Below, in pieces: positions 30,166 to 64,000 of a stretch of DNA of 64,000 bases. The stretch spans positions 2,466,887 through 2,530,886 of the forward strand of contig JARDVH010000163.1 of the NCBI GenBank assembly GCA_030324005.1, written 5' to 3'. The DNA comes from Negaprion brevirostris. Its lineage: Eukaryota. The notes beneath the pieces are model-generated. The model was not told the origin of the DNA and did no database searches. It saw only the letters and a program-made list of their open reading frames with translations. The position numbers and the translations under genes are program-made. The stretch's first letter is position 1, and every line of letters begins with the position of its first letter.

Positions 30166-30931
30166 CATGGTCATCATTACTGAGGTAAATAAAACAAAGT
30201 AAACTTACATTCCAACAGTGTTGGCATGATCTTAACCTGTGTTTCTCTTTAGTATTTGTTTGGCATCCGTGGTGGGCCGTTCAGTTATATTGCTATTATG
30301 CCGCCGCCTGCTACAGACCAAAACGGAACAAGGATTGAATAATCAATTGCACGTCCCTGCTGCTGTTTGGACTCTTGCAAGTCATATTCAATGCTGAGAT
30401 ACACAAGGCCTCCTCTGCTGCATTGTTAGTAAATATTGCACAACCTCTGTTTGGCCCGTCCTCGTGGTGTAGGGTTAACTCGAGGTGGCTGGTGACGCAG
30501 TCCTGTCACTGATTCGTCTGTTCATATGTTTATACCACAACAGGATATTCCCAGAAATGCGCAAAGAGCAACAATTATTACTTGTAGGTTAAGATTTTTA
30601 AGTTTGCTATTTCAGGCTGATATTTGACTGTTATGAGGCATAGTTCCAATTTTGGTGATGCTCCCCACGTGTTATGGTACCCTATAGACAGTTTGCAAGA
30701 TTTTTTGGGTGGGACTTCCCTTTCCTTATGCTGGGGTCTAGTTTGATGTTTGGTGGTCCACATAATTTATTCATGTTTCACTTCCCCGAAATGGTTTACT
30801 TTCATATTTTAGACGACAATTCGGAGTTAATCACATAGCTTTGGATGAGTGTCGCATTAGGTCAGACAGAGTGACGAAGGCATAACTTTTTCCTAACTAG
30901 CAGAGAAGTAACCTTCTTTGTCCTGTTTCAG

Positions 30932-31344
30932 GTGCCGACGTCACGATTACAGACATGCCGAAGCTTCTTCAGCAAATGGAATGGAATGTTAATTTCAACG
31001 TCCCTCCACCCTTCAGATCTCGTATCAAAGTCTGTGCCCTCTCATGGGGTTATGATCACAGTTCATTTCCATCAGACTACGACTGCATTCTTTGTGCAGA
31101 AATCATGTATTGTTCTGAAAGTCTTCCTTTAATCGTAAGCACACTTCTGCACCTCAGCAATGAAAAAACGATCATTTATTTCGCCAGCAAAATGTCAATA
31201 TACCCTGTAATGACCAATTTCGGATATCAGTATCTGTCTCAGTATTTTAACTGCAAGGTTGTTTACCGAGACCAAGACACCGATGTCCACGTGCACATAA
31301 TGACTAAAATCATTGAAAATAAGCTGGCTGAGACCAAGCCCTAG
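30932..31344 (+). CDS. EEF1AKMT3: EEF1AKMT3/METTL21B-like coding exon 3 (terminal)
   Basis: CTTTGTCCTGTTTCAG acceptor, phase 1; (G)ADVTITDMP..NV..KVCALSWGYDHSSFPSDYDCILCAEIMY..TLLHL..IYFASKM..YRDQD..KP*; the three exons total 678 nt = 225 aa + stop. Confidence 0.92.
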
Positions 31345-41439: not shown

Positions 41440-42800
41440 ATATAGTTATAGAGTCATAGATGTTTACACCATGGAAACAGGCCCTGCGGCCTGCTCCAAT
41501 GCTGTAAACTTGTCCATGCCGCCCATTTTTAGCCACTAAACTGGTCCTAATGGCCTGCGTTTGGCCTATATCCCTCGATACCCATCTTACGCATGTAACT
41601 GTCTAAACGCTTTTTAAAACACAACATTGCACCCGCCTCTATTGCTACCTTTGGCATATTGTTCCAGACACCCACCACCCTCTGTGTGAAACGATTCGCC
41701 CTCTGGACCATTTTGGATCTCTTCCCTCTCACCTTAAATCTAAGCCCTTGAGTTTTAGACTCTCCTCCCTTTGGGAAAATATATTGACTAGCTGATCTAC
41801 ACCCCTCATTATTTTATGAACATCTGTAAGATTGCCCCTAAGCCTCCTACACTCTGAGATAAGAGTGTCAGCCTATCGAGCGTCTCCTTACAACTCAAAT
41901 CATCAAGTCCTGCTAGCATCCTAGTAAATCTTTTCTGCACTCTTTGTAGTTTAATGATATCATTTCTATATTAGCATGACCAGAACTGTACACAGTATTC
42001 CAAGTGTGGCATTACCAATGTCTTGAAGAACTTCAGCAAGACATTCCAACTCCTGTATTNNNNNNNNNNNNNNNNNNNNNNNNNNNNNNNNNNNNNNNNN
42101 NNNNNNNNNNNNNNNNNNNNNNNNNNNNNNNNNNNNNNNNNNNNNNNNNNNNNNNNNNNGAACTGTACACAGTATTCCAAGTGTGGCATTACCAATGTCT
42201 TGAAGAACTTCAGCAAGACATTCCAACTCCTGTATTCAATGATCTGGCCGATGAAACCAAGCATACCAAATTCCTTCTTCACCACTCTGTACACCTGTGA
42301 CTCCACTTTCACTGAGCTATGAAACTGTACCCCTAGATCTCTTTGTTTTGTAACTCTCCCCAACGCTCTAACAGTAACTGAGTGAGTCCTGCCCTGGTTC
42401 GATCCACCAAAATGCATCACCCCACATTTATTCAAATTAAACTCCATCTGCCATTTGTCAGCCTACTGGCCCAATTGATCAAGATCCCATTGCAATTGGA
42501 GGTAACTTTCTTCACTGTCCACTATACCACCAATCTTGGTGTCATCCGCAAACGTACTAACCATGCCTCCTAAATTCTCATCCAAATCATTCATATAAAT
42601 GACAAATAAGTGGACCCAACACAGAACCCTGTGGCATATCGCTTGTCATAGGCCTCCAGTTTGAAAAATACAGCCGTCTATATTCACCCTCTGTCTTCTG
42701 TCACCAAGCCAATTTTGTATACATTTTGGTACCTCACCCAGGATTGAGTGAGATTTATTCCTATGCAACAACTACCACACGGTACATTGTCAAACTCTTT
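41440..42800 (-). mobile_element. CR1 LINE 3' portion
   Basis: MEFNLNKCGVMHFGGSN..DLGVQFHSSVK..LVMPHLEYCVQFW, FTQRVVGVWNNMP; (CATAGAGT)n tail at ~41440-41460. Confidence 0.9.
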
Positions 42801-43329
42801 CACCCATCATCCTAAAAGATGGAACTGTGAATCCATTTGAAGACTGTCTACAAAACTGACCAAATTCTGACTTAAAATATAGAGCTTATGAGAAAAAAAA
42901 GCACTGCGATTAATGCCCTTGCTGGAAAGGAGGGTTTTAAACTAAATTGCGAAATTTGCTCCAACCAGGATGAAATAGCAGACAATCGAGATAGCGCAAA
43001 TTGCATTGGGAGAGGTAAATGTGACAGCAGTCGAATACATTAGGCCTAGTTCAGATTCGAAGAGTTTCTCACATGAAGCCATCCAGACATTTTTGGAATG
43101 AATTTAATTAAGTTCATGGAATGTGGTCGATCAATTGCGTAACATAACACACGCTACTACATAAGATGATTAGTTAGAGGTTGCATCAGAGGCCTGTTTC
43201 AGGAAGGTCAGATTACGAACTTAGTATTCCTGCCTACAACTTATTCAATAACGGAAAAAGTGTGTAAAAGAGAGATAAGTCTGACAATTTTGATTTAACA
43301 AGCCATTGTAACTGGGAGAGGGATAATTT

Positions 43330-46300
43330 AGTTGAGGATCAAACTCATGTCTAATTATTTAGAATCCAGCAATAAAGGAGGCTTCACGACACCATTAGGA
43401 TGAATTACATTGGCCATCAAATTCGGGAAAGAGACAGAGGAGCAACATTGCCCGTAACTGGAATAAACGCGTATATCCCACAGATTAGTGACAATAGCGG
43501 AACAAATATTATCCACATTTCGGCTGGTGCAGTAATAGTATAAAGTGCAAGAAGAAAGTCGAATTCCTGAAATATATACTTGAAAATATTTGTTCAGCAT
43601 GTTTCCAGTCCAATGAAGAAGAAAAGAGTGCAGGATTAAGGATCCAAAGAAGGGAGTTCTGGAAGACATTTCACTTAGAAAGCATTTTGTTGATAATGAA
43701 TATAGCATTTTCAGAGGTACAACAATTATGGAAATAATCAGGTACATTAGGTCATACAAACCTTTAACTGGAGCAGGCGTTACTTTAGCCAGTTGAGAAT
43801 AAATCTAGCCCAAATGCACGGAAATCAAAACAGTAACTAAACGTATACAGGACAACAAGAGTGTTTCGCACTTTTTAAATGCAGAGGCGGCGGATTCCCA
43901 TCAAGCAGAAAATAAGCACATCTACAGTCAGAGATCCCTTGACTGAAGTAAGTATGAGATTAGGTGTGCTGACACAACAAATATTAAGGGTCGATAACTT
44001 CCGGTTATGATTGAAGAGACTTTCGTCAGAAATAGGTATGGCCTTAGATAACTGTTGCATTGAAGGTACATCTCAAGGTTATAACTAATATTGTGGAAAA
44101 TCGCCACATTGCCCTGTTGGCATACGTAAACCCAACGACTCATCCCATCGGACCAAGCACTGTCCCATCAGATTACTGAGAATCATCAGAAAAGTTCAGG
44201 GCAGTTTCATGGGGGAAACACATCAAGTGGCATTTACTCAGCAGCAATTTGTTCATCAATGTTCATTTGGATCCGGCAGGATCATTCCGCTACATTAATC
44301 ATTGCCCACCTTTCCAAAAAGAGAATGGTCGAATTTCAGAGTTGAGTTGGGCGTGATTGCAAATGGCTTCAAGGTGATATTGAAAGACCCAGAAATCAAG
44401 GGTTCCTGTTGAACTGAAGTTTATGACATGAGGCGAAAAACATTCCGCATTGGCTGGAGGCACATGTTGTAAAAGTGGTGACGACTGCGATAGGTCAAGT
44501 CCAAACATACTCTTCAAGGTGTGGTCCTAGGCCCAACCATCTTAAAGTACTTTGTGAAAGAGTTTTCCCCCATCAGTAGGTCAGAAGTGGAGATGTTTGC
44601 TGATGAATGAAGATTGTTCATTTCCATGCGTAACTCCTCATCCGCATTCGGGAAAGCTAGGAAACATTCGATTTTCCAAGTACTTGAAAATGACCATCTG
44701 CAACAAAAGACAATTTAAGTATCTCTTCGTACTGTTCTCCGACATGACTAGGGCTGAATGCCCTACTGGATAATGGATCTTATCTTTGGCCAGAAATTTA
44801 ACCATTAGTATAAATGCTCTGGCTTCAAGAGCAAGTCGGAGGCCGTGAACTCAGTACACTTTCATGCCCTTTCTGACTTCCCAAGAGCTGTGTAGATCTA
44901 TTGTGCAAACCTCTTGGTTCTATTAAGTACATCTCCGGGCACATAGAAGAGATGGGATCTCTCTTATTGTACACAAGCCCGTTTGATTGGCACGCATTCC
45001 AGCACCTTATACATAAATTTCACAAAAAAACTGGTGCAGAGGGCAAAAAGTTATTCTATCTGACACATGCAACAGTCCAACGCATATTTGACAGCTTCTA
45101 TGAGACAAGTGTTTTTTATCACCTACGAAAACCAGTATGGAAGATGCAAGTTCCACTCCAAGTTGTACAATTTGTTCTTAATAAGACGCAAACGTCAACA
45201 TGGACTGCAAACGTTAACATGTTTTCTCTCTTCACTGATGCTGCCACACTGACTTTTTTTTTGAAATTTGTTTTGCTTTTATTCCTGTCTTTAACAGGCC
45301 TATCGCTGTGCCTACACCAGAAGAAGGGCGGCTGAACATCACCTCCTGAAAATAAATTTGTAAAAAACTCTAAATGTTGGCCCAGCAGCGATCCCAGTAT
45401 AACAACATAATAACATGAAACGTTTGCAGTAAAGCACTGAGTTGGAACGACAGAACTCACAGATATTACGTGGTGTATCCATGGCAACTGATTGATGCTT
45501 GGATTGACATCTCCACTGCCCTCGAATCCTGCATTGACATTGTGGTGTTGCGAGATACCAGGAGAATAGGGAAAACGCTAAAATGATGAGGTAAAGGTGA
45601 CAACTGCATGCTGGTCAGCTAATACTGTTTCTAGCAACGAAATTTTTGACATGAAACCTGGAAACAAATAATGGATTTTGAGAATATTATGGGCGGAGGT
45701 ATGATAACTAGCGACAGACGCATTAAGAACGCAACATATTTCGAGAATACGCTTGTGGCTTTTGATGAAAAAAACTAAAATAGCAGATGGGACAATAGAA
45801 TCATGGAAAAGTTAAACGCAGAAACAGGCCAAACAATTCATTATGGCTGTGCAGGAAGAATAGTAAAAAAGAGAAACGAGCCCTTCGTTCTAATCCAATT
45901 TTCCAACATCTGGTCCATAGTATTGCATGTTACAGCACACGGCACCCAACATGAAAAAGAATCAGGCAATAGAAATGTTATAATAATAAAAAGAAGCCTT
46001 TAAAGTTGCCAGAAATAATAGTGAAGTTGCGGATTGGGGTGTTTTGTACAGGGGGGATGAGAACATGTAAACAAATATAGCAAGGGAGAATAGAATATCA
46101 GTGAAAATAGGTAAGTTACATATAACTGGATTGCAAAACAAATATAGATACATAAAAGAAAGCATTTGGCTCAGAGGAATTTGGCTTCATTACTGGCAGG
46201 CCGAGGTGAATTTATAACGCAAAATAGAGGAATGACAGAGAATTGTGATGATTACTTGGTGTATGTCTTCACTGCGAAAGTTATAAGAAATTTTCCAGGA

Positions 46301-47500
46301 ATAGAGATCAAGGGAACTAGAGAGAGCAGATTTATTGTGATTGTGGGACATGTGTGTCGCTGGTTGGCAAGTACCTATTTCCCATCCCGAATTACCCTTT
46401 GCGGGAAGTTGAAATTTAACAACATTGCTGTGGCACTGGAGTTACACGTAGGTCAGAGCAGATAAGGAGGGCAGATATCCTTCCTTAAAGGATATTGGCG
46501 AACCACATGGGTGTTCCAACATGGCTTCATGGTCATCTGCTGATTCTTAGTTTACTGAATTCAAATTTCACCAGCTATGGTGATGGGATTTGACCCATGT
46601 CCTCAAAACATGAGCTGATTTTCTGGAATAACAGCCTGAAGATATAACTACTGGGCCATTGCCTTTCCCAGCCACTCCTAATAATTATTGAGCGAAATTA
46701 GTGATGATCAGAAAACGATTCTGCAGAAATAAACAGAAAGCAGATTTTTAAGACTCCAGAGTTGATGTTCTGACATAAACGTTGGAAGGGATAATAGAGA
46801 TAATTGTAGAGATAATTGATGTATTGTTGATCATTTTGCAAATTTCAAAAAATCCTGGAATGGCCCCTGCAGACTCAATGGGAGTCACTCTAATACTTTC
46901 AACCTCCTCGGTGTGCAGGGGAAGGAGAGTAGAAGAGAACTGCAGACCCTTTAATCTTATGTAGTCAGTTTGTTGGAATCTAAAAGATAAGTTGTGATAA
47001 GTGGAAAAACGAATGATAATGTCCTGGTTGTTTACAATCATTCTGGATTTATGAATTGGAAATTACGTTTAAAGACAAAACTGTAAGAGTGTTTAGACGA
47101 ATTGGCGAACAGAAGAAATAATAGTGAATCAGTCGGCGTTGTATATTTGGATTTTGAGAAGATATTCTTTGAAGGCGCACACGGAAGGTTGGCTCGAAAA
47201 ATTAAGGCACATTGGATAAGAGGTGACATACTAGTGTGGGTTAGAAATTGTCTCAGATGCACAAAATAGAGAGTAGAATGCAATGCGTCATCTTTGATTG
47301 GCAGGTCTTAATCAGTGGATTAACACAAGGATCCGTACTTTAGCCCAGATACCCTCATCATATTTCAATGAATACGATACAATAATGGATACAGTTTCGC
47401 GGATGACAGAATCTAAAGAGGAAGGGTGTGTTGTGAGGGAGATGGGAACGGCCTCAATGGAATTTGGTCAGATTGAGCAACCCACACTGGATTAGACCAC
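43330..47500 (+). mobile_element. Very old LINE debris (CR1 ~43330-43900 and ~45600-47500; L2/CR1-like ~44200-45200) with a minus-strand SINE at ~46340-46670
   Basis: Remnants such as QGVVLGPT..MFADE (44515-44610), VYLDFEK (47140), and the SINE core matching 39690. Confidence 0.6.
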
Positions 47501-47869
47501 ATTATAGATCCTCAGGATGACCTTACACTTCCTTTTTGCTGAGCTAAGAGATTTACTAATCATTCGACACGACTGATTTAATCCTTCTGAGTATTTTCTA
47601 GATGATGTGTACTTCCGTTGGAGAAGAACCAAACTGCATGTTCACCCGAACTGATTTGTTGTTTCAATGCAATTACTCATTAAACCCAGCCCCCTAATAT
47701 TTTCTAAATTTGAAGTCTAATTCGAAACATGCCTGGCAATGTCGATATCTGTAACCCCACCCATCGCAACGCAGTTACTAACCGTTTGCCTAAACTGGTA
47801 ACGATACCGGTCACTGCTGTACGGTTCCGGTTGAAAAATCAGAAAAGAATGTCAGCAATCACTGACATG

Positions 47870-48009
47870 TGATGCATAAATATAATCTTTGTTTCCTGAG
47901 CGCCACATGTCCTTCTCAGCGAGCTGGGGTACGATTTCTCCGCAGAACCATTGATCACGTTTCCTTCGGTTCTGTATAATACAATCGCCGAGAAAAGCAG
48001 CGCTTGGAG
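47870..48009 (+). promoter_or_regulatory. Putative promoter / 5' UTR of the secreted-protein gene
   Basis: Locally CpG-rich unique sequence; TATA-like CATAAATATAA at ~47875; G at -3 of the ATG at 48010. Confidence 0.35.
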
Positions 48010-48040
48010 ATGTTGGTGCTGTTTCTCCATGTTTTACTGG
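48010..48040 (+). CDS. Signal-peptide exon of an unidentified secreted protein
   Basis: ATG TTG GTG CTG TTT CTC CAT GTT TTA CTG G|GTAAGT = MLVLFLHVLL, consensus donor, phase 1; in frame with the 50892 exon. Confidence 0.65.
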
Positions 48041-48600
48041 GTAAGTATATCTCCATTCTGCTTTCCTGAATTTGGATAGGAGGCATGATCTCCGAGTGCT
48101 TTTGCATATTCCAATTTGTCGCACAGAATGCATCATCATTTTAAAATGATGCGCCTTTTGTTGCTTATTTTCACGGTGTCCAAAATTTACCCGGTGTTAC
48201 AAATTCTCAGCTCCGAATCGCTCAGGAGCAAACGGATAAGGAAATGTCAATCGCCGTTCGACAATTTATGATTGTGCAATATAAAGCTTCGTTTTTGGCC
48301 TGTGCACTTATCATGAACGCTATTTCCAGAAATTATTCTAATTTCATAGAATTAGGTAGATATTTGGTTTGAATGTGTAACAATCCAAAATTTATTGAAC
48401 CTTAAATTGCCAAAGACTGATTTTCAGCTGCCTGAGCTGGTAGATAGTTAACTAATTCTATCGAATAATTATATAATAGTATAACTTGGTACCCTCTACG
48501 GGAATAAGTTAATCATATGTCACAAAGTTTGTGATTTGAGATGAACATGTTTGATGAAAGCCTGAATGTGCTTTGGAAACCATAGTTTTAAAGAAAGTAA

Positions 48601-48920
48601 GGGCGGCATGGCGACACGGTGGTTAGCCCTGCTGCTTCACAGCACCAGGGACCCCGGGTTCAATTCCGGCCTCGGATAACTGCCTGTGTCGAGTTGCACA
48701 TTCTCCCCGTGTCTGCGTGGGTTTCCTCTGAGTGCTTCGGTTTCCTCCCAGACTCCAAAGATGTGCGGGTTAGGTTATTTGGCCGTGCTAAATTGATCCT
48801 AGTGTTCGACCATTAGCAGGGTAAATATGTGGGGTTACGGGAATAGCGTCTGGTTGGGATTGTGGTCCATGCAGACTTGATGGGCCGGGTGGACTCTCTC
48901 TACACTATAGCGATTCCAAT
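48601..48920 (+). mobile_element. HE1-type V-SINE
   Basis: GGGCGGCATGG..GGTTAGC..GGACCCGGGTTCAATTCC head, core GGTTTCCTCCCAGACTCCAAAGATGTGC. Confidence 0.85.
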
Positions 48921-50891
48921 CCACAATTCCGTGATTGATTTCATGATTTGGATTTGGATCCTTGAGTTAATATTGTAAATCCCCGAGGATAACAGAGACA
49001 AACATTGGCGAAATAATTTCTTTCGAAAAAATAAACAGACTTCTCGTCTCAATCTGTCGCCATGTAGACAATTCCAATCTGGAATTAATTGTATTAATTT
49101 GCATTAATAACAAAAGACAGGACATGTTTATGAATTAGATATTCGAAGCGATGTTGTGTTGGACTCAAAAATGGAGATTCACTTATCTCTACTTGACGTT
49201 CTCATCCAGGAAATCAGAAAATTTGAACCATGGGAATCAATAATTTGGTACATTCCGTTAGTACTATTTTAGAATTTTACTTACTGCGATGTTTTCACTG
49301 ACTTTCAACATTTCAAGACCGGAATTTATTGGTGAATGTGAAGCCGACGTACCTTGAACCAAAGAGAAGCGTTTCATAATTTCACCAAGTTCCTAATGCA
49401 CCTGAAAGGAATCATGCCATGAGCATAATGCCTCTTTCACTTTGCAACGTTGCTCGCAAGCACAATCCGAGGAACTTTCCTCATTATTCTGGAAAAAAAG
49501 GCGAGGTGACATCCAACATCCAGCTTGAACTATTTGTATGTGCAATGGCGTCTATAACCTTTCCTCTCTTCAATCGGGGCCAGATTTAATTCAACCGATT
49601 CCACGTACGTTTCCTTATTCTTCTCCGTTCTGTGAGTATACGTTAACTGAGAGTAGGATGCGAATCCGCCTTAAATCAAGCCCACTCAAGGTGATGGGGA
49701 AGTGGAATGAACGGGGGCCACGGAGTTAGTTGGTATGCACAATGGCACGGAAGGCGAACGGCAGTGAATTGGCTCTTCGGGTAATTTTGAAGCTTGCCGC
49801 TCCAGAAATAATGTAAATCAGGAGTAAGCGGAGGTGGTCTTAAACCTACACCTGATTCACTGCAACCAGTTTACACCCGACCATGGAAGCTAAAATGATG
49901 GGTAACTGGATGCAAATGTCACTGGCATAATTCGAATTTAGTTACATAGACCGCAAAGCGAAATTTGATTTATTCCTTCAGGATTCTGCTTGGAGATAAA
50001 TCCAACCTGCATTATTGTACACAATCCCGGTGATGCATTCACGGGGATGACATTTGTCCTTCAACTGATATCGAGGACAATGAAATAAGCGAGATGTGAA
50101 CGTTCTATTTTACGAAAAATTTGCAGAGACTAATTTTGAAACGGATGCGATTCAAAAATTAGAGATATATAAAAGGGCAGGCGATTCGATAAATTACTGT
50201 ACAAGCTTCAGACATATACCCTTTTCAATATTATTAATTATTCTTTGCAAAATTTCATTGACGTTTTAGTTGTTTAATTCATAGGTATAAAATAAAATGT
50301 CAGAGTGAAATGGACACTGAGCTCAACATTGCCAGGCATTATTGGCTCAGACAATGGATCAAATTTCCTTGCACGGTGACTGGCAGTAAAGATGTGGCTA
50401 TTTCTCTGAGTTGTTTCAATGCGTGTTCGGAAGCGTAGGTATGTTATTTGTCGTTATTCACGACGTTCTTTAAATTATGTGGGCTCCCAGTCCAGAGTAT
50501 GCAATTCAATTGAATGGCGGTGCCCCAAAGAATGAGCTCTTAATGCAATTTTTCAATTATTTATAATCTTCCTCATTGGTTCCACTGTTATGGTAGGACG
50601 TTGTGCGATGTGCGTTGGTGGAAGCCGAGTGAGCGCGGGGGGAGAGGGGGCGGGGGGAGCGACGAATTGGATTCCTCGTTAAAAGCTTAACATGTACGGA
50701 ATAAATTGAATGGCCTTCTTCCGTAACATTCCATTTGACTATAGTTCTATTCCTTGTACGGCTTGAATTAATACAATATAAGTTAAATGAGAGGATTTTT
50801 GAAATTACAGTGTTCAGTTTCGTATATTTATTAACACTAGTCAAACGTTGTTGCGTTTTAGAACTGATATCATCCATTATTTGTGTTTTAG

Positions 50892-50960
50892 CCGCAGCAT
50901 TTGGAACACCTTTGCAACCGACAAGTCAACCAGCTACCGTTGAAGAAGTTACTGAGGAAG
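50892..50960 (+). CDS. 69-bp phase 1-1 exon, copy A: (A)AAFGTPLQPTSQPATVEEVTEE
   Basis: TTTGTGTTTTAG acceptor, AAG|GTAAGA donor, open frame that completes a signal peptide. Confidence 0.7.
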
Positions 50961-51383
50961 GTAAGACATTCCTAAATTTGGAGCTAAATGAACAATAAAA
51001 TATTAATTACCGGAATAAAATGATTATTTGTATCCATTTCAAAATGTTGGTAAGCAGATGTAGGCCATACATCTTGTTCCCTGACGATACAGAATTTTGC
51101 TTTTCTGAGGTTCAACACTGAGACTGCAGGACAGTTAACTCCTCTGGACATGTGCTATTGCTGAAGACATAGCTCGAATCTCGCTTAAAGTTTGGTGTTT
51201 TACTTTCATTAAACAGTAGCCTGAATCATGATTATATTGCAGCGCCCTTCTTCAGCCTCTTGAATCTTATGCGTCCGTAAAATTTCAGTGGGCCCCTGAT
51301 GTAGACACTCCAGTTGCATGGCTCTCTGGGAAAGATAAAAGCAAATTACCGCGGATGCTGGAATTTGAAACATGAAGAGACAA

Positions 51384-51545
51384 TGCTGGAAAATCTCAGC
51401 AGTTCTGGCAGCATCTATAAAGAGAGAACAAAACGGACGTTTCGAGTCCAGTTGACCCTTTGTCAAAGCTTTGTCATCTGGACTCGAAAGGTCATCTCTT
51501 TTCTCTCCTTCGAGATGTTGCCAGACCTGCTGAGATTTTCCAGCA
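51384..51545. mobile_element. Penelope-like pseudo-LTR fold-back (also 52497-52659 and 53556-53717) with a minimal hammerhead-like motif on the minus strand
   Basis: Arms TGCTGGAAAATCTCAGCAG..TTCGAGTCCAG.TGAC / GTCATCTGGACTCGAA..CTGCTGAGATTTTCCAGCA; same terminus as the GIY-YIG element at 5150. Confidence 0.75.
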
Positions 51546-52004
51546 ATTTCTCTTTTAGCCTGTGAGAAANNNNNNNNNNNNNNNNNNNNNNNNNNNNNNN
51601 NNNNNNNNNNNNNNNNNNNNNNNNNNNNNNNNNNNNNNNNNNNNNNNNNNNNNNNNNNNNNNNNNNNNNATTATTTATAATCTTCCTCATTGGTTCCACT
51701 GCTATGGTGGGACGTTATGCGATGTGCGTTGGTGGAAGCCGAGTGAGCGCGGGGGGCGAGGGGGTGGGGGGAGCGACGAATTGGATTCCTCGTTAAAAGC
51801 TTAACATGAACGGAATAAATTGAATGGCCTTCTTCCATAACATTCCATATGACTATAGTTCTATTGCTTGTACGGCTTGAATTAATGCTATATAAGTTAA
51901 ATGAGAGGATTTTTGAAATTACAGTGTTCAGTTTCGTATATTTATTAACACAGCCAAACGTTGTGGCGTTTTAGAACTGATATCATCCATTATTTGTATT
52001 TTAG

Positions 52005-52073
52005 CCGCAGCATTTGGAACACCTTTGCAACCGACAAGTCAACCAGCTACCGCTGAAGAAGTTCCTGAGGAAG
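52005..52073 (+). CDS. 69-bp phase 1-1 exon, copy B: (A)AAFGTPLQPTSQPATAEEVPEE
   Basis: Same splice signals as copy A; two substitutions, both non-synonymous (V>A, T>P). Confidence 0.65.
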
Positions 52074-53899
52074 GTAAGACATTCCTAAGTTTGGAGCTAA
52101 ATGCACAATAAAATATTAATTACCGGAATAAAATGATTATCTGTATCAATTTCAAAATGTTGGTAAGCAGATCTAGGCCATACATCTTGTTCCCTGACGA
52201 TACAGAATTTTGCTTTTCTGAGGTTCAACACTGAGACTGCAGGACAATCAACTACTCTTGACATGTGCTAATGCTGAAAACATAGCTCGAATCTAGCTTA
52301 AAGTTTGGTGTTTTATTTTCATTAAATAGTAGTCTGAATCATGGTTATATTGCAGCGCCCTTCTTCAGCCTCTTGAAACTTATGAGTCCGTAAAATTTCA
52401 GTGGGCCCCTGATGTATATACTCCAGTTGCATGGCTCTCTGGGAAAGATAAAAGCAAATTACCGCGTATGCTGGAATTTGAAACATAAGGAGATAATGCT
52501 GGAAAATCTCAGCAGTTCTGGCAGCATCTGTAAAGAGAGAAAGAAAGCGGACCTTTTGAGTCCAGATGACCCTTTCTCAAAGCTTTGTCATCTGGACTCG
52601 AAACGTCAGCTCTTTTCTCTCCTTAGAGATGTTGCCAGACCTGCTGAGATTTTCCAGCAATTTCTCTTTTGGCCTGTGAGAAAGATCTTTGGAGGTGCGT
52701 CTCCATAGCTACCTGTGGTTTCCGCCATGATTACAGATTCTTCATGCAGCGCAGGCTGCACAACAAAGCTCGGGAAGTGAACTCCATGCTGCCATTCAAT
52801 AGTGCGTCTTGATTTGGGCCGTAAAATAATGTTCAGCTGATAAACATGGAAGCAGAAACAACTGGGCTAGGTGTATGCTGTTTAACCCTTTGAACCTGCT
52901 CCGCCATTCAATGTGATGATGGCTGAACATTTGTTTCTCACTGCCACATTCAGAATTTCTCCTCTTTACGCCTTTGACAGCTAAAAAACATCCTTGAGTA
53001 GATTGTCACGTGGTCTCCACAGCCGTGTTTGGTGGATAATTCCCCAGATTTCTTTGAGTGAAAAAANNNNNNNNNNNNNNNNNNNNNNNNNNNNNNNNNN
53101 NNNNNNNNNNNNNNNNNNNNNNNNNNNNNNNNNNNNNNNNNNNNNNNNNNNNNNNNNNNNNNNNNNATAAAATATTAATTACCGGAATAAAATGATTATT
53201 CGTATCCATTTCAAACTGTTGGTCAGCAGATCTAGGCCATACATCTTGTTCCCTGACGATACAGAATTTTGCTTTTCTGAGGTTCAACACTGTGACCGCA
53301 GGACAGTCAACTACTCTGGACATGTGCTAATGCTGAAAACATAGCTCGAATCCAGCTTAAAGTTTGGTGTTTTATTTTCATTACACAGTCGTCTGAATCA
53401 TGGTTATATTGCAGCGCCCTTCTTCAGCCTCTTGAAACGTATGCGTCCGTAAAATTTCAGCGGGACCCTGATGTTGATGCTCCAGTTGCATGGCTCGCTA
53501 GGAAGGAGAAAAGCAAATTACTGCGGATGGTGGAATTTGAAACATAAGGAGACAATGCTGGAAAGTCTCAGCAGTTCTGGAAGCATCTATAAAGAGAGAA
53601 AAAAGCGGACGTTTCGCGTCCAGATGACTCTTTGTCAAAGCTTTGTCATCTGGACTCGAAACGTCAGCTCTTTTCTCTCCTGAGAGATGTTGCCAGACCT
53701 GCTGAGATTTTCCAGCAATTTCTCTTTTCGCTTGTGAGAAAGACCTTTGGAGGTGCGTCTCCATAGCTACCTGTGGTTTCCGCCATGATTACTGATACTT
53801 CATGCAGCGCAGGCTGCACAACAAAGCTCAGGAAGTGAACTCCATGCTGCCATTCAATAGTGCGTCTTGATTTGGGCCGTAAAATAATGTTCAGCAGAT

Positions 53900-56560
53900 A
53901 AACATGGAAACAGAAACAACTGGGCTAGGTGTAGGCTGTTCAACCCTTTGAAACTGCTCCGCCATTCAATGTGATGATGGCTGAACATTTCTTTCTCACT
54001 GCCATATTCAGAATTTCTCTCCTTTACGCCTTTGACAGCAAAAAAAATCCTTGAGTAGATTGTCACGTGGTCTCCACAGCCGTGTTTGGTGGATAATTCC
54101 CCAGATTTCTTTGAGTGAAAAAAAATTCTTAACCTCAATCCGAAATAGTCCACCCCGTATTTTGAGACTGCGACCTCTTTTTCTGGACCGAATCGCCCCT
54201 GCACCCCTCCATCGCCCCCAAACTAGCACACACATTCTCCCTGCATCGAGCATATCCCGCTCTATCGGAATTGGATAGGTCTTCATCAGCATTTTTTCAG
54301 CCTTTTAAATGCTTGTGCAAACAGGCCCAATGGAACCATAAGCTTAGCAAGCATGCGCTCGACCCCCTTTATGGCAGTTAAATCATTTCTTGGGTAGGGA
54401 ATCCAAAACTGCTTGTCACCCACAGCCAAACGTGGTTATACCAAGGCGCTATATAACTGCAGTGAGACATCACTTCTTCTGAAATCAAGTTGCCTTGCAG
54501 TGGAATTCAGCATATTATTTGCCTTCCTAACTGCTTGCTGACCCTACGTTTCCACTCCCATTCTCTTGCGTACAATGACACCCAGATCTTTTTGTACATC
54601 CACATATATTACAGTTGAATAATACTCTTCCCTTCTGTTTTGTTCACATTGGTGCTCATAAATTCACATTTTGGCAATTGTACCTCATCTGACACGAGTT
54701 TGTACACTCAGTCAACTTATGCATGCCATCCGGGAGCTTTCTTGCTTCCTTCTCACTGCTCTGCCCAGTTTTGTGTCGTCAGCAAACTTAGAAATGTTAC
54801 ATTTCGTTCCCTAAACCAGGCAATGTATCTATTTCGTGAACGGCTGAGGCCCAATCAGTGATTCCTGCAGACCTCACGAGTCAATGTTGCCAATCGAAAA
54901 TACCCATTGGTTTCCAATCTCTGCTCCCCATCTGTCAACTAATTTTGTATCCATGCAAATACATCCCACATCCATCGGTTTTGCCCAACAAACGCTCATG
55001 AGAGGCCTCGTCAAAAGCTCCTGAAATTACATATCGACACATCCATTGGTTCTCTCTGATCTATTCCACGAGTTGCATTCTCAAAAACTGTAGCATACTT
55101 GTTCAACATGATTTACCTTTCATAAGTCCATTTTGGATTTCTTCAACCCGGTTAATGTTTTCCAAATATACTGCAGTCCATTTTTTATCATAGTCTTGTA
55201 TCTTTTCCATTATTGATGTAATGCTAACTGGTCTGTAACTCCCCTTTTGTACGTTTCTTCTCCCGTTAACTAACGGAGTTACATGTGCCACTCTCGAATC
55301 TATAGGAATTATGCCAGAGTCTGTAGAGTTATTGAAGATGTCACGAATTTATCCAGTATTTTCAGAGCCACGTCATTTAATATCCTGGCATGCAGATTGC
55401 CAAAGCCTAGTGATCTATCAGAATTTGACACCATTAACTTCACCAACAACATTTTCTGACTGATACAGATTTGCCTCATTTCCACCCATTCGTTAGGCCA
55501 CTGGTTTCCTAAGATTTCTGGGGGCTTATTTGTGCCCCCTTTTGAAAAGGCAGTGCCTGAGGTTGTGCTGAACTCTTCTGTCATTTCTTTTTTCTCCATT
55601 ATGATTTTCCCAGTTTTTGATTGTACGAGACTTACAATTATGTTTATGAACTATTTTTTCTTCACATATGACAGAAGCTTTTAAGGCCAGTTTCTATATT
55701 CCCAGAGATTTTACTCTGAGTTCTTTTCACACTTCTAATCATTTTTGGCCACTTTTGTTGATGTCTAAAGCCGTCACAATCCTGATGCATGCTGCTTTGT
55801 CTGCCAATTTTATAGTTTTCTTTCTGACTCATAGAACTATAGAGATTAGGAGCAGGAATAGTCCATTCGGCCCTTACAGCCTGCTCCGCCATGCAATTTG
55901 ATCATGACTCATCATTGGATTCAATATCCTAATCACCCCTTCCTCCCATATCTCTTGATCCCTTTCGCACAAGAGTTATTTCTTTTTTTTTCCTCTTGAA
56001 ATCACAGAGCGTTTTGGCCTCAACTACTCTCAGTGGAACTGGATTCCACAAATTCTCCACCTGCTGGATGAAAAATTTCTCCTCACCTCAGTTCTAAACG
56101 TTTTACCCCTTATCCTCAAACTATGACACCTAGTTCTGGACTCCCGCACCATTGGGAATGTTCTTCCTGAATCTATCCTGTCTAACACTGTTAGAATTCT
56201 ATACGTTGTTGTGAGATCCACCCTCACTTTTCTGAACTCCAGTGAATATAATCCCAAACTACTTAATATATCCTCATATGACGAATTTACCATCCCAGGA
56301 ATCAGCCTGGTAAACCTTCGCTGTACTTCCTCTATAGCAAGGAATAGAACACCAAAACTGCACACAATACTCCAGATTTGGCCTCGCCAATGCATGATAC
56401 AATTGTCGCAAAACGTCTCTATCCTATAGCCAAATCCTCTCGCTATGAAGGCCAACACACTGTTTGCTTCTTTATTGCCTCCTTTCCTTGCGCACTTCCT
56501 TTCAGCCACTGGTGCACGTTGACATCATAGTCTCATTGGTTCTTCAATGTATTAATAATA
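53900..56560 (-). mobile_element. Degenerate CR1 LINEs (old copy ~53900-55830; second 3' end ~55830-56560)
   Basis: SYRPVSITSIMEKI..QNGLMKGKSC; ANSVLAFIARGFGY..VQRRFTRLIPGM..LGLYSLEFR..TRCHSLRIRG. Confidence 0.85.
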
Positions 56561-57206
56561 AAAAAAATACGTACACGTTCCAGGGCTCTCTTTGCATTAC
56601 GAATTTGGTTCAGCCAGTCTATGTGTAAATAAAAGTCAGTAAAAAGTCTGACAACACCAGGTTTTAGTCCAACCGATTTATTTGATAATAAACCCACAAG
56701 CTTTCGAGNNNNNNNNNNNNNNNNNNNNNNNNNNNNNNNNNNNNNNNNNNNNNNNNNNNNNNNNNNNNNNNNNNNNNNNNNNNNNNNNNNNNNNNNNNNN
56801 NNNNNNNNCCTTTAAATTAATAAGTCTTGTATAAGCTGCCTGAAAAAGAGTGTATTAAGTATGGCATTCTTTTCAAAGTTCACCATTCTATTTTTAGTAT
56901 TTCACTACACATCCTAAAATACACAAATACAGCCAGAACTTAAGTTGCAAGAGCTACTACTGGAAGTCACTAGAGTTAAAAGTATTTACAGTTTGGAATG
57001 CTAATCCCCTTCAGAATGTCCATTTTGCTGAATGAGGAATTCAGGTTCCCTGCTTCTACCAAATAAAACTTGGGAAAAACCAAGGAGAAATGGAGAGAGG
57101 CATGCCAGGTTCAGAGAAACAAAACCGCTGCCACTATAGGCTTCGTTGGAATTAAAATTATCACCTTATATGAAACTTTTCAGATACTAATCTGATCACT
57201 ACTTAC

Positions 57207-57283
57207 CTGAGGCAGTGTGTAATTGATGTGTTCTGTTCTACATCAACTGAAAGATCCAGAAAGTCTTCATCTTTGCTGCTAAC
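57207..57283 (-). CDS. USP46: USP46 deubiquitinase internal exon (77 bp)
   Basis: TTCTACAG|[25 protein letters not shown](R)|GTAAGT; continues the 59862 exon in phase 0. Confidence 0.93.
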
Positions 57284-58559
57284 CTGTAGAATTACCCATT
57301 TATGCAATAAAATTAGTTCCTGGGAGGCACAGAATACAAGAACAAGGAATTCATGCAAAACCTTTACAAATCTCTGCTTAGGTCAAAGCTGGAGTACTGT
57401 GTACAATTCTGGACACTGCACGTTAAGAATGAAAAGGCCCTGGAAAGAGAACCAAGGTAGTGTATCAGAATGAGACCGGGATGAGGGAGTTCAGTTATGT
57501 GGAGAGATAGGAACATTTGGGGAATTGCTGTCCTTGGAGCATTGAAGTTTATGGAGATATTCAAAATTATGCAGGATAGTTTCACCCTGCTTGCTCTATT
57601 TCCTCTAGCAAATGGGGTGGCAACAAGAGATAATAAATTTAAAATAATTCACAATTAGAGGATAAATGAAGAGAAACCTCACACAGATGGTTAAGTTCTG
57701 GAACACATTATCTGAAGATATGGGGAAAATCAAATTCCATAGTAATTTGCAAATGGCAATTAGGACCGAACTTGGAGGGACCTAGCTTTCAGGGTTATGA
57801 AGCTAAATTACAGCCCTGTAGAGAAAATAAGCCTTTATGACATCTGTTCTAACTTTCTTTATTGATAAAGGTATCAAGGGGCAATGGTTAGATTCCCTCC
57901 TGTTGGAGAGAATTTCCAGGCATGTGTGGCACAAAATGTTACTTACAACACAGGGACAGATTTACACCATTCCCTGGCACAGGGTCCCAAACCATGGGAG
58001 ACCCCATCCTGAGTGATATTTGAAAAAAACCACAAGTGGTAGAGCTGCTCATCCAATCACTGGCTGATTCCTCCCTACATTTCCTATCAGCAGCAAATGC
58101 AGAGTGAAATCTGACTACAACTGGATGAGAAGCAAAGAGGGAAAGAATCATGAAGGAAAAAATTCAAACAGTTGAGTTGCATTTGGACCCGACCAGCAGG
58201 CAATGGAAAAGCAACAAGTCCTGAGACAAGGGAAAGGCAGCCACAGTGAGCACCAGGTATGTGTGTGAGGCAATGGACCCCAACCCAGCAACAGGTGAGG
58301 TAGAGAACCACAGGTGAGGCAGCAAAGCAGACAGATGACCCCAGGAAAACAGCAAAGCAGACAGAGGACCCTAAAGACACGCAAGGGGTGGAAGCATGAG
58401 CTATGGACAGAGCAAGAGTTGTAGGGAATCAATGATCAGAACGACAGCTTCTTAAAAGCTTGGATTTCAGCAATTATTTGTACAGGACTGTATCTACATG
58501 TGAAAAAGTTGTGTTCAATAGGTCTATTTTTATGATTTTTCCCTTTGTGTTCTGGGAGC

Positions 58560-59310: not shown

Positions 59311-59861
59311 ATCAAATCGCTAATTCAATCACTGAATCCTGATTTCACTTGTAATGAAATGAACTTCACATTAATTTACATTTTCTCCAAAGAACAGCTT
59401 CTCTGACAACATTGCACTCAGTTGAGGAGTGCTATTTGACCAATTCAGAAAATAGTTCAAATTTATATTCTCTAAATAAATCCTCTTCAATTTTTTAAGC
59501 CAAAATAAAAATTTCACATTAGGTGATAAAATATTGTAAGTTAACTACACTTTGATACTTTCCTGCTCTAGAAATGCCTGTTGAATTCATAATCTTAACT
59601 ATACTTCCAGAAAGATACCAAACTAATTAAGGAATATACAGACCACAGGAGGGGAAAAAAGCGAAAGAGTGTGTGTGGGGTGCGGTGAGGGAGGGAGGGA
59701 GGGAGGGAGATAAAAAAGATATGCACAAAAGTACAGCAAAAAAAAAAAAAACTTCTCACTCCTCAATCCAGGAAGGAATGAAACACAAGAGAAAATAACA
59801 AGAAGACATTTATAAAATGATCAAGAAAAATAATGTAACTTTTCTAAAAATCTTTGCCCAC

Positions 59862-60091
59862 CGTTTCACAGTTCAGACATCGTGTCTCATTCGTAAGTGT
59901 TCCTTGAAAGATCTCATGCACCCAGGTCGGTTCAGGCTTACTATTTTCTTCTATTTCATTTGCATTTCCGTTCTTCAATTTCCCATTCTGTTTCTCTTGC
60001 TTCTTCTCTTCCTGCAAGATGTCAGCGATGGTGTTCAATAGGTAGTTCAGAAACTCATGTGCATCTTGTTGCATGTAGTTATCAAACAAGT
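59862..60091 (-). CDS. USP46: USP46 deubiquitinase internal exon (230 bp)
   Basis: TTTTAACTGTAG|(D)[68 protein letters not shown]|GTGGGC; QQDAHEF box; EEKK, KLKNGN and CLNCE favour USP46 over USP12. Confidence 0.93.
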
Positions 60092-61199
60092 CTACAGTTA
60101 AAAGAAAAATAAATGTTACTGTCAACTTTGACCCATTTCCAAAGGGATTATAGTTTGCAGAGCAAGTGAAGGTGACATTACAATAGTAAGGCACTAATCA
60201 CATGGCCCTCTTTCCCTACACCTGGCTTCAGCTGATGACTGTTCACATGCTAACAGTGTAGGGCAGGTGGGAGAGAACATAGGGCACCTTACTTGTAGTG
60301 AAATTATAAATATGCCATTTTATAAATACATGATTCAAGACATGAATGAAAGGAATCTCCCAACAAATGTTTGTAAAGTTATTGTTTGGCAATGATCCGA
60401 CTATGTTATAATAGAAAAATAATAAAACAGATTTAAATAAAAGGAGCAAACCTTGGAGTTTTAGTTCTACACCTTCTAATTTAGCTTTAGAAACATAGGA
60501 AATAGGTGGAGCGGGCCATTCAGCCCGATGAGCCTGCTCCACTATTCAATATGATCATGACTGATCCTCTATCTCAACATCATATTCCCACCCTCTACCT
60601 ATACCCCTCAACACCTGTAGGGTCTAGAAATCTATTTCCTTCTTAAAAATATTCAGGTACTTGGCCTTCGGTGGTGAGGAACTCCACAGGTTCACCATCC
60701 TCAGTAAAGAAATTTCTCCTCATCTCAGGGCAGGGTAGGTGTAGGAGGATGTGGCGGTGCGGGCTCGTTGGGCCGAAGGGCCTGTTTCCCGTGCTGGGTT
60801 GTTCTTTGTTCTTAATACTCCAGATTTGGCTTCGTCAATGCACGATACAATTGTAGCAAAACGTCTCTATCCTATGGCCAAATCCTCTCGCTATGAAGGC
60901 CAACACACTGTTTACTTCTTTATTTCCTCCTTTCCTTGCGCACTTACTTTCAGCCACTGGTGCATGATGACATCATAGTCTCATTGGTTCTTCAATGTAT
61001 TAATAATAAAAAAATACGTACACGTTCCAGGATTCTCTTTGCAGTACGAATTTGGTTTAGCCAGTCTATATATAAATAAAAGTCGCCTATGATTACTCTT
61101 ATGCCCTTATTGCATGCACCTTTAATTTCTTAGTTAATACATTCCCTTACATATCCACACTATCCGTTGGTGGTGGTGTATTGGGGGTTTTGGGGGTAC

Positions 61200-62222
61200 A
61201 TAGGGAGATGGCTGTTGCTGTGGAGGGTCAGTTATCTCAGCTCCGGGATATCCCCGTAGGAGTCCCTCAGGGCATTGCCCTGGGCCCAACAATCTTCAGC
61301 TGCTTAATCAATGATCTTCCCTCTGTCATATGCTGAGAAGTGGGAATGTTCGCCTGTGATTGCATAATGTTCAGCACCATCCATGGCTCCTCAGATACTG
61401 AGATAGTCTACGTTCAAATGCAACAGATCTGGACAATATCCTGAGTTGGGCTGACAAGTGGCAAGTAACATTCGCGCCACACAAATGCCAGGCAATTACC
61501 ATCTTCAATTCGAGACATTCTAACCATTGCCCCTTGACAATCAATGGTGTTGCCTTCACTGACTCCCCATCCGTCAATATCCTTGGAGTTGACCAGAAAC
61601 TGGAGTTGGCCAGCAGCGACTCACCACATAAAAACAGTGGCGACAAAAGCAGGTCAGAGGCTAGGGATACTGTGGCAAGTAACTCACCTCCTGACTCTCC
61701 AAAGTCTATCCGCCATCTACAAGGCACAAGTCAGGACTGTGGTGAAATACTCCCCACTTTCCTGGATGGAGTGCAGCTCCAACAACACTCAAGAAGCTTG
61801 ACATCATCCAGGAAAAAACCGCCTGCTTGATTGGCACGATATTTACAAGTATCCACTCCCTCTACCAGTAGCAGCAGTGTGCACTATCCATAAGACTCAG
61901 CAATTCAGCAAAGATTCTTAGATTGCACTACGACTACTTCCACCCAGAAGGATAACAGTAGCAGGTATATGGGAAGACAGCCACCTACACGTTCACCTTC
62001 AAGCAATTCACCATCCTGATTTGGAAATATATCAGCGTTCTTTCGCAGTCGCTGGGCCAAAATCTTGTAATTCCCTCCCTTAATGGCATCGTGGGTCAAC
62101 TAATAGCACATGGCCTGTAGCGATTCGAGAAGGCAGCTCACCACCACCTGCTCCAGGTCAGTTAGGAATAGGTAATAAATGCTGGCCAGCAGCGATGCCC
62201 ATGTCCCACAAATAAATTAAAA
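61200..62222 (+). mobile_element. L2/CR1-clade LINE 3' portion
   Basis: GVPQGIALGPTIFSCLINDLP, DLDNILSWADKWQVTFAPHKCQ, KAGQRLGIL..YKAQVRTVVKYSPLSW; tail AATAAATGCTGGCCAGCAGCGATGCCCATGTCCC. Confidence 0.85.
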
Positions 62223-62229
62223 CAACTGT

Positions 62230-63475
62230 AGCAACATTTCTTGTCGTCTGCTTTTCCCTATCTACACACATACAAATTGTACACAATGATTTTCCGAGTC
62301 ATTTGCCCGTCTTCGCTTGCATCGACGCCCTTCTTTGCTAACAACACTGCTCCACCTCCTTTTCCCTTTTCTCCGAAATTCCTAAATAGTGAACACCTCT
62401 CAATGGTCCGTTCCCATCCTTGGGAAACCTGAAGAAATGACTCTGCATTGGCAACGATCTCACAAATTTGTCTCTCTACTTGCCTTTAGACTTGTCTTTT
62501 TAACTTCGTTCGTCGTATTCGCTTTACTTTGCTTTATTGCCCAATTTGTTCCCCGCCTTTGCCTTTTCTGCCTCCCATTTTTGCTTCTTTCACTTCTATC
62601 TTTTGTTCCTATCAGTATTTCGCCGTCTCCTGCCTCTGCCCAGCTTCTCATCGTGCTGCCTTTCTAGTATATATCCTAACACGCGACACTGGTGGTATCC
62701 TGATTTAACCTTTGAGTTTTACCTTTCAATTGTCATCCTAACATCATATTTTCTGCTGGTGGCACCACGTACTTTTTTAACCCAGGATATGTGTACCGAT
62801 ATCTACCACGACCATTGTCTGTTCACTCTCCTTCATAATCCCTGCACCGACTTCAAATCACCCTTTACTCTGGCACCAGGGAGGCAACTAATCTTCCTGG
62901 AGTTACTTATGCGGCCGCAGAAGCGCCTGTGCAATCATAGAATCACAGTATCATGGAGATACTGATCCTCAGACATATCACATCGCATCTTCTTCTCTTA
63001 AAATAAACAACTTGTCTAATTCTATTTTCATTCCTTCTCTCCGTAAACCTTAACATTGTTTATGACAGTCACATCCCTTTGAATGCTTCGATTGAAACGG
63101 CCCCTACAATTCCCTCAGCTCATGCATTCCACCCCTAATGATTTTCTATGTGGAAACTTTTCCTCATATTTCTATTCCTCCTGTGATCGTTACTTTCCAA
63201 TTATCCCACTCTTTTCGTTCCATTCACGATAATGAACCGTTTATTTCTATCTTCTCTACCCAGATTCCTTTTGATTTTGCATACATTGCCTCTCACTTCT
63301 CAAAGGACAAAATATATATCTTCGTCGATACATCTGAAGCTACTCATCCCAGAATTATTCTCACGAATAACTGATCCACTTCAGATCAGCTATGATCTTA
63401 TCGAATGGCGGGGCAGGCTCGAAGGGCTGGATGGCCTATTCCTGATCCTTTTTCTTATGTTCTTACGTTCTTATG
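62230..63475. mobile_element. CR1 debris (minus ORF1/inter-ORF and 3' end; short plus-strand 3' end at ~63370-63475)
   Basis: CTCTGGCACCAGGGAGGCAAC is the reverse complement of the CLPGARV block; (TTCTTATG) tail. Confidence 0.6.
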
Positions 63476-64000
63476 AATATTTTCTGCATTCTGTCCAATG
63501 TGTCCAAGTCACTCCTGAAGTGTGGCTCCTAGAAGTGGACGTCATCATCTGTTAAAGTCTTTCTCGTGATTCTTGCAAATTCAACATTACCTGCTTGCTC
63601 TTGCAGTCAATATTATCATGAACTATTGCATTGCTGAAAGTCTGTCATTGTCTGCACTCATACAGAAAGTTATACATTATCTGCATGATGATAAGAGTAA
63701 CACATTTAGGTCTTATACAAACGGAACTGATTTTGATTTGTGCATGAGGTCAATCGAACATTAAATTTCATCCCTTGCAATTCGTGACTCTGCCATTTAG
63801 AAATCCAGAGAACATGGTCCCGTTGTTATTGGAGTTCTTGGACAACTCGATATAATTTTTGGCTATGAAAAGCAAGGTAGCAGTATATTCTCTATACAAA
63901 ACCGTAAGGTGCTGGTGACCCTCACAGTCAGTCACTATGTTGTTCCCGCAGTGTGGCAAAAAACGTTTCCCCCAAAAGTCATAAAAGTCCCTTTCATAAT

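Follow-up and report, generated by a model that had tools for sequence, protein, structure and literature searches.

Two small exons of Negaprion brevirostris probably open a CD163c-alpha/WC1-type receptor gene with recent copies that are likely collapsed at assembly gaps

In a window of 64,000 nucleotides from Negaprion brevirostris (contig JARDVH010000163.1), a very short exon with a hydrophobic leader can be joined at consensus splice sites to a 69 bp exon coding for an acidic segment, and this second exon recurs further downstream. To which gene do these exons belong, and what does the repeat represent? A sequence-only reading had proposed either one gene growing a mucin-like repeat by exon duplication or a young tandem family of small secreted precursors, and regarded it as an undescribed candidate. 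Our data instead suggest that the two exons begin a receptor of about 990 residues, the repeated exon probably representing two or three recent whole-gene copies that were collapsed and stacked at assembly gaps.

Leader and spacer exons

The exons proposed to be joined, 48010-48040 and 50892-50960, were found as described in their letters and splice sites, the second with its 1-1 phase and length of 69 bp, and the splitting of the leader across the micro-exon and the 69 bp exon is the same in orthologs and in a paralog on the same chromosome, here called gene B. In short-query tblastn searches over 264 kb, five of seven N-terminal pieces of other sharks' proteins peaked on the leader or spacer exons (best E values of 3.3e-5 for the spacer and 1.8e-4 for the leader), while a horn-shark leader and one bamboo-shark spacer had no best match on these exons. 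A bamboo-shark leader matched the exon ending at 48040. Both the acceptor and the donor of the leader exon are conserved in gene B, which also has a 69 bp counterpart of spacer exon version A. Since the acceptor at 47946 is conserved, the leader exon probably spans 47947-48040 and follows a non-coding exon, suggesting that its 5' UTR starts at 47947; the non-coding exon expected further upstream was not found within the window. On sequence grounds, the leader and spacer exons are more than a product of chance.

Spacer exon version A carries the end of the signal peptide plus a spacer of 23 residues, and cleavage would occur after the small residues at the exon start. An alternative acceptor lies 6 nt further in and has a higher score in a simple matrix, and the phase-0 frame of the 69 bp exon is also free of stops; the orthologs match the phase-1 frame. 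Compared with nine orthologous segments, 4-12 of the 23 residues are identical. The acidic character that had been pointed out holds for this copy (4 D/E vs 0 K/R) but is not conserved, as the nine orthologous segments are balanced (1-3 D/E vs 1-3 K/R). When the spacer and its surrounding frame (47 residues) were searched against proteins, 158 candidates were obtained, none at E<=10, and Pfam gave no domain. A single spacer-like segment precedes 10 of 17 SRCR1-type domains (at least 42 % identity), in several cases after a matching leader, and is absent before the other seven. Because the segment is S/T/P-rich, clearly acidic only here and absent from some relatives, it looks like a short, dispensable stalk. 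Within one 90 % cluster of whale shark models (P0048, P0142 and P0143), the spacer is found in one model and absent in two; the ray models P0099 and P0144 are without it, and skate models start without a leader.

The start codon has moved in this copy: AAG stands where gene B and other sharks have their ATG, and five codons further on an ATT has become ATG (47992-48012). The leader is thereby shortened to 15 residues and has no charged n-region. No RNA datasets matching 47800-51569 were found; one run of unrecorded kind (X1) contained a fraction of 0.70 of the words. Read coverage was examined for 50670-51340 only, a stretch that includes neither the leader exon nor the junction with the USP46 piece described below.

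The receptor gene downstream

On the strand of the leader exon follow eight group B SRCR exons, an interdomain exon, a TM exon and tail exons; they are in phase 1 and arranged as in the orthologs (Table 1). SRCR1 starts 1544 bases beyond the window end, and the later exons lie within about 62 kb.

Table 1. Features of the locus. Positions follow the window numbering, extended past 64000; the position on the contig (C163) is the number plus 2466886.
Feature	Position	Strand	Remarks
Lysine-methyltransferase exon	30901-31341	+	PF10294
Leader exon	47947-48040	+	probable start at 47947; ATG at 48010; 10 codons + 1 nt, phase 1; donor GTAAGT
Contig version A, end	50556-51569		repeated at 95 % as start of next contig
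Spacer exon version A	50892-50960	+	69 bp, AG..GT, phase 1-1; 23-residue S/T/P-rich segment before SRCR1
Contig version B	51670-53066		between two 100-N gaps
Spacer exon version B	52005-52073	+	69 bp, AG..GT, phase 1-1
Contig version C	53167-56708		first part repeats the final 959 bp of B (94 %), then LINE-rich intron
USP46-like exons	57190-57290 and 59847-60098	-	in the second intron of the receptor
Second intron, remainder	60814-64000	+	gene continues past window end
SRCR1 exon	65544-65855	+	splice scan
SRCR2 exon	77245-77574	+	
SRCR3 exon	83043-83357	+	
SRCR4 exon	85738-86055	+	partly in gap
SRCR5 exon	99341-99652	+	
SRCR6 exon	104854-105168	+	
SRCR7 exon	105567-105881	+	
Interdomain exon	112582-112656	+	75 bp, between SRCR7 and SRCR8
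SRCR8 exon	114815-115120	+	
TM exon	119626-119757	+	
YEEI exon	123061-123147	+	first cytoplasmic
Second cytoplasmic exon	L008:9214-9295		frameshift; numbering of stretch L008
Last exon	126412-126467	+	
Gene B	221975-163866	-	paralog

The SRCR domains are of group B, with one exon per domain and with CD163, CD5L and CD6 as PDB matches. All seven fully assembled SRCR exons are open and have intact splice sites; six domains contain eight cysteines and SRCR5 contains six, without Cys2 and Cys7, SRCR4 being partly gapped. The summed exons predict a product of about 990 codons, with SRCR4 counted as 315 bp and the damaged second cytoplasmic exon skipped. In the assembled copy the latter also has no GT donor; skipping it preserves the frame, and some orthologous models skip the same exon. 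We consider it almost certain that the leader and spacer exons open a receptor gene of the WC1/CD163 family, and the predicted product is likely a type I membrane receptor of the CD163c-alpha/WC1 (SCART) kind. Splicing from the spacer to SRCR1 would follow the orthologs and gene B, the latter having a leader, one 69 bp spacer and SRCR1 about 0.5 kb further.

The hydrophobic leader followed by an S/T/P/E-rich segment would also fit a separate small secreted precursor or growing mucin unconnected to the SRCR exons, particularly as SRCR1 lies 14.6 kb and three gaps away from spacer version A in the assembly. However, orthologs and gene B join both exons to SRCR1, a splice scan of 54-65 kb gave no further credible exon and the acidity is unconserved, which makes this explanation hardly tenable; what had been taken for a small secreted precursor is predicted to be the start of the membrane receptor. 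Neither is a mucin growing here, as in ten orthologous cases no second copy precedes the spacer.

A search with SRCR1 retrieved shark RefSeq models at 50-72 % identity. Those under accession numbers XP_067898921.1, XP_078059644.1, XP_072329695.1, XP_043557568.1 and XP_020379640.2 are orthologs or paralogs with 55-72 % identity on SRCR1 and the same domain order, from which this copy differs by its shifted start codon and its more acidic spacer. They bear the automatic names DMBT1-like or M130-like, and several fuse neighbouring genes. As annotations of the gene exist for other sharks, albeit under these misleading names, it is largely a known gene rather than an undescribed one. No description of the receptor in sharks was found among the open-access papers listed, with no mention of nurse shark in the best 20 of 328 of one listing, and the accessible part of the text supplement of PMC3964593 contained no match.

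Gene B lies tail to tail with the receptor gene, has nine SRCR exons including two of SRCR2 type, and is close to Mustelus asterias models. Two further SRCR1-type exons with 50-53 % identity are found on the unplaced contigs C12174 and C3356, and we regard them as further members of the family. In relatives, several models fall into a single 90 % cluster on one chromosome (five in manta, two in Mustelus).

Origin of the repeated exon

The 69 bp exon does recur at 52005, with two differing positions inside the exon. That they follow each other as exons within a single gene was not confirmed. The copies are spread over three contigs with 100-N gaps between them, and the contigs overlap at their ends: the final 1014 bp of A are found again at the beginning of B, and the final 959 bp of B at the beginning of C, with an identity of about 95 %. 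Moreover, 56366-56637 of contig C recurs at 60814-61084 (94 %). Counting overlaps of 200 bp or more and skipping gaps flanked by under 100 bp, the end of one contig is repeated at the start of the next at 9 of the 17 100-N gaps in the interval of 30-127 kb, i.e. the gene and its upstream flank, and at 1 of 44 gaps outside this region (0/12 upstream, 1/32 downstream). Across 12 overlap pairs, divergence is 4.5-10 %. Tandem Repeats Finder, with a period limit of 500, reported nothing at this site.

In an alignment of A, B and C with 576 columns, the versions show 19, 14 and 25 private changes, respectively, which are interleaved and not arranged in blocks. Three interleaved DNA versions imply that at least two recent loci were likely collapsed. 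In run X1, eight contigs cover parts of 50670-51340, and all 33 listed substitutions correspond to letters of B and/or C; three contigs are identical to A. The only X1 contig spanning the spacer exon has a letter combination of neither assembled copy, so the third exon copy suggested earlier is plausible as a version, but contig mosaics would look the same. X1 possibly comes from the very sample that was assembled, so it shows real DNA versions rather than independent support and yields no copy number. Unplaced contigs carry versions of 42160-44950, 46788-47958 and 49783-50643 at 91-95 %, the last of which is a third version extending upstream past the start of B, and a version of the intron before SRCR1 at 90 %. 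These versions (90-95 %) cover promoter and introns, so that more than the exon was duplicated; they agree with the earlier suggestion of a young duplicated family. Only one near-identical copy each of SRCR1 and the leader exon is present in the assembly. Very probably, the repeat consists of collapsed recent paralogs; duplication would have involved the whole gene rather than a local segment, and contig version B probably belongs to a paralogous copy of the gene.

A true tandem duplication of the spacer inside the same receptor gene, with units of 1.4 kb or more and a longer acidic stalk, would fit the three real versions of the stretch as well as the single leader exon and single close SRCR1 exon of the assembly; additional copies would splice in frame, the exon being symmetric, and junctions could be hidden, as gap sizes are placeholders. 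However, no contig contains a head-to-tail junction, the A/B/C homology stops exactly at the contig ends, the third version reaches upstream to 49783, the same overlaps are seen in introns and at the SRCR2 and TM exons, and the repeat is missing from all ten orthologous segments. Therefore, we find such a duplication unlikely. End-to-start overlaps at gaps are the usual sign of unmerged haplotypes, and the pattern would be typical of alleles of one very heterozygous locus. Three finely interleaved versions of the A/B/C stretch exceed two alleles, and the 4.5-10 % divergence also speaks against them, making an allelic origin highly improbable.

The integrity of the assembled copy is a further point. 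Two USP46-like exons lie between the spacer and SRCR1 and are joined gaplessly to the SRCR1 contig via LINE ends at about 60490-60813; the junction is either a chimeric contig or a real rearrangement. Short motifs of other USP46 exons matched nothing over 464 kb except the second exon of the known pair; a pattern search gave no match genome-wide, being weak in that it covered one serine codon family only, and the 71 PF00443 matches included no further one near the locus. The leader and spacer could thus stem from a broken or pseudogene copy, severed from SRCR1 by a LINE-mediated rearrangement with the USP46 piece. The lost ancestral ATG, the frameshifted cytoplasmic exon and the isolated USP46-like exons mean that the assembled copy may be broken or the contig chimeric. 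On the other hand, the seven fully assembled SRCR exons are intact, a new in-frame ATG is available, the joining point falls within LINE sequence, in which contigs built from short reads can be wrongly joined, and the lesions may stem from different copies, the model being a mosaic of copies. Altogether, a broken copy seems quite unlikely. The same lesions, including the leader without a charged n-region, and the intervening USP46-like piece also count against a receptor gene with collapsed copies, as do the single near-identical copies of SRCR1 and leader. Upstream, the window contains a lysine-methyltransferase exon of an expanded family, with 20 genome matches, 5 on C163 and 11 on C115.

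The exons and the repeat themselves are ordinary, being the opening exons of a receptor family that is already annotated, together with a duplication that was collapsed. Caution is warranted, as overlaps of a contig end with the next start at 100-N gaps can mimic exon duplication.

Placement among SRCR receptors

A phylogenetic tree (WAG+G4, midpoint root) was built from 73 domains, seven of them our own and the others selected from 10 database proteins. It placed SRCR5, 6 and 7 with domains at the n, d and e positions, respectively, from turtle, caecilian, sturgeon, cyprinid or marmot proteins (UFBoot 98, 94 and 73). SRCR5 groups with the same-position turtle and caecilian domains (UFBoot 98), the labels being given by position and a named SCART1 being absent from the tree. 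Support was weak for SRCR3, 4 and 8 (54, 38 and 37), and the d' position remained ungrouped. By score, SRCR3 is best on SRCR5 (b) of human CD163, SRCR7 on SRCR7 and not SRCR8 (112.9 vs 59.7 bits), and SRCR8 is tied between SRCR7 and 9; the scores of SRCR7 and SRCR8 and the weak tree support speak against CD163c-alpha typing. With domain types assigned by position, the gene appears to belong in the CD163c-alpha/WC1 branch and is not a proven SCART1 ortholog.

Several relatives were rejected. DMBT1, a secreted protein with a near-identical SRCR array, has CUB and ZP domains; it is excluded by the TM and tail exons, close orthologs list only PF00530/PF15494, and cat DMBT1 domains form a separate clade in the tree. 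An SCPP/SPARC-like secreted protein, prompted by the USP46 neighbour, would have phase-0 exons and its entire signal peptide on one exon, and is excluded by the phase 1-1 exons and the SRCR linkage. CD5 has three SRCR domains, as has CD6 in the accessible text of PMC4533223, and eight domains rule out both. WC1 proper, with an a-type first domain and a b-c-d-e-d repeat without n, is ruled out by the n-type domain and the lack of an internal repeat.

In a proposed working, the protein would be displayed on leukocytes and recognize microbial surfaces or a counter-receptor through its SRCR array, and phosphorylation of the YEEI tyrosine would boost antigen-receptor signalling, as in WC1. SRCR7 contains the VEVLxxxxW motif, which reportedly has a role in DMBT1. 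This role, with the spacer as a dispensable stalk, appears to us evenly balanced between right and wrong. According to the accessible part of PMC2906472, the counterpart tyrosine of WC1 must be phosphorylated for potentiating T-cell activation, and that of PMC9276791 reports that a CD163-like gene in cod marks T-cell subsets, including putative gamma-delta cells. It is tempting to speculate, if only tentatively, that sharks possess a still-expanding CD163c-alpha/WC1-type co-receptor array in the eight-domain mammalian layout, acting as germline pattern receptors on gamma-delta (or NAR-TCR) T cells, so that WC1-style co-recognition would date from the origin of jawed vertebrates, with one member recently copied two or three times and its start codon turned over. 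Shark genes filed as DMBT1-like or M130-like have the CD163c-alpha/WC1 layout, which the accessible text of PMC2906472 follows back no further than birds and platypus. Shark immunology thus gains a candidate T-cell co-receptor and marker.

Among known systems, CD163c-alpha is described in the accessible text of Herzig et al. 2010 (PMC2906472) as m-l-b-c-n-d-e-d', i.e. eight domains with an SRCR5 without Cys2/Cys7, an interdomain exon and a cytoplasmic Y-(Q/E)-(D/C/E)-(I/L) motif. The shark gene shares with CD163c-alpha/SCART1 the eight group B domains, the cysteine loss in the fifth, the interdomain exon, the TM exon and a tail whose YEEI matches this motif. It differs in an SRCR7 that is d-like by score against human CD163, in its recent multi-copy state and in having more than the two cytoplasmic exons given for the bovine CD163c-alpha gene in the same text. 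CD163A (M130) is there given nine domains (h-i-j-k-b-c-d-e-d') and a YREM tail; eight domains and YEEI exclude it, although human CD163A is the best solved-structure match and SRCR3-4 of the horn-shark ortholog align in register with its SRCR5-6. With WC1 of ruminants and the WC1/CD163c hybrids of chicken and platypus, as far as described in the accessible parts of PMC2906472 and PMC2681482, the shark gene shares a multigene array, one exon per SRCR domain, an interdomain exon and a tail tyrosine. A divergent first domain is a further common trait, SRCR1 having 50-53 % identity to other SRCR1 copies in the genome, and the WC1/SCART2 class is further characterized by gamma-delta T-cell expression and tail phosphorylation. 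In contrast, WC1 has 11 or 6 domains rather than eight, and bovine WC1 is without the n-type domain present here.
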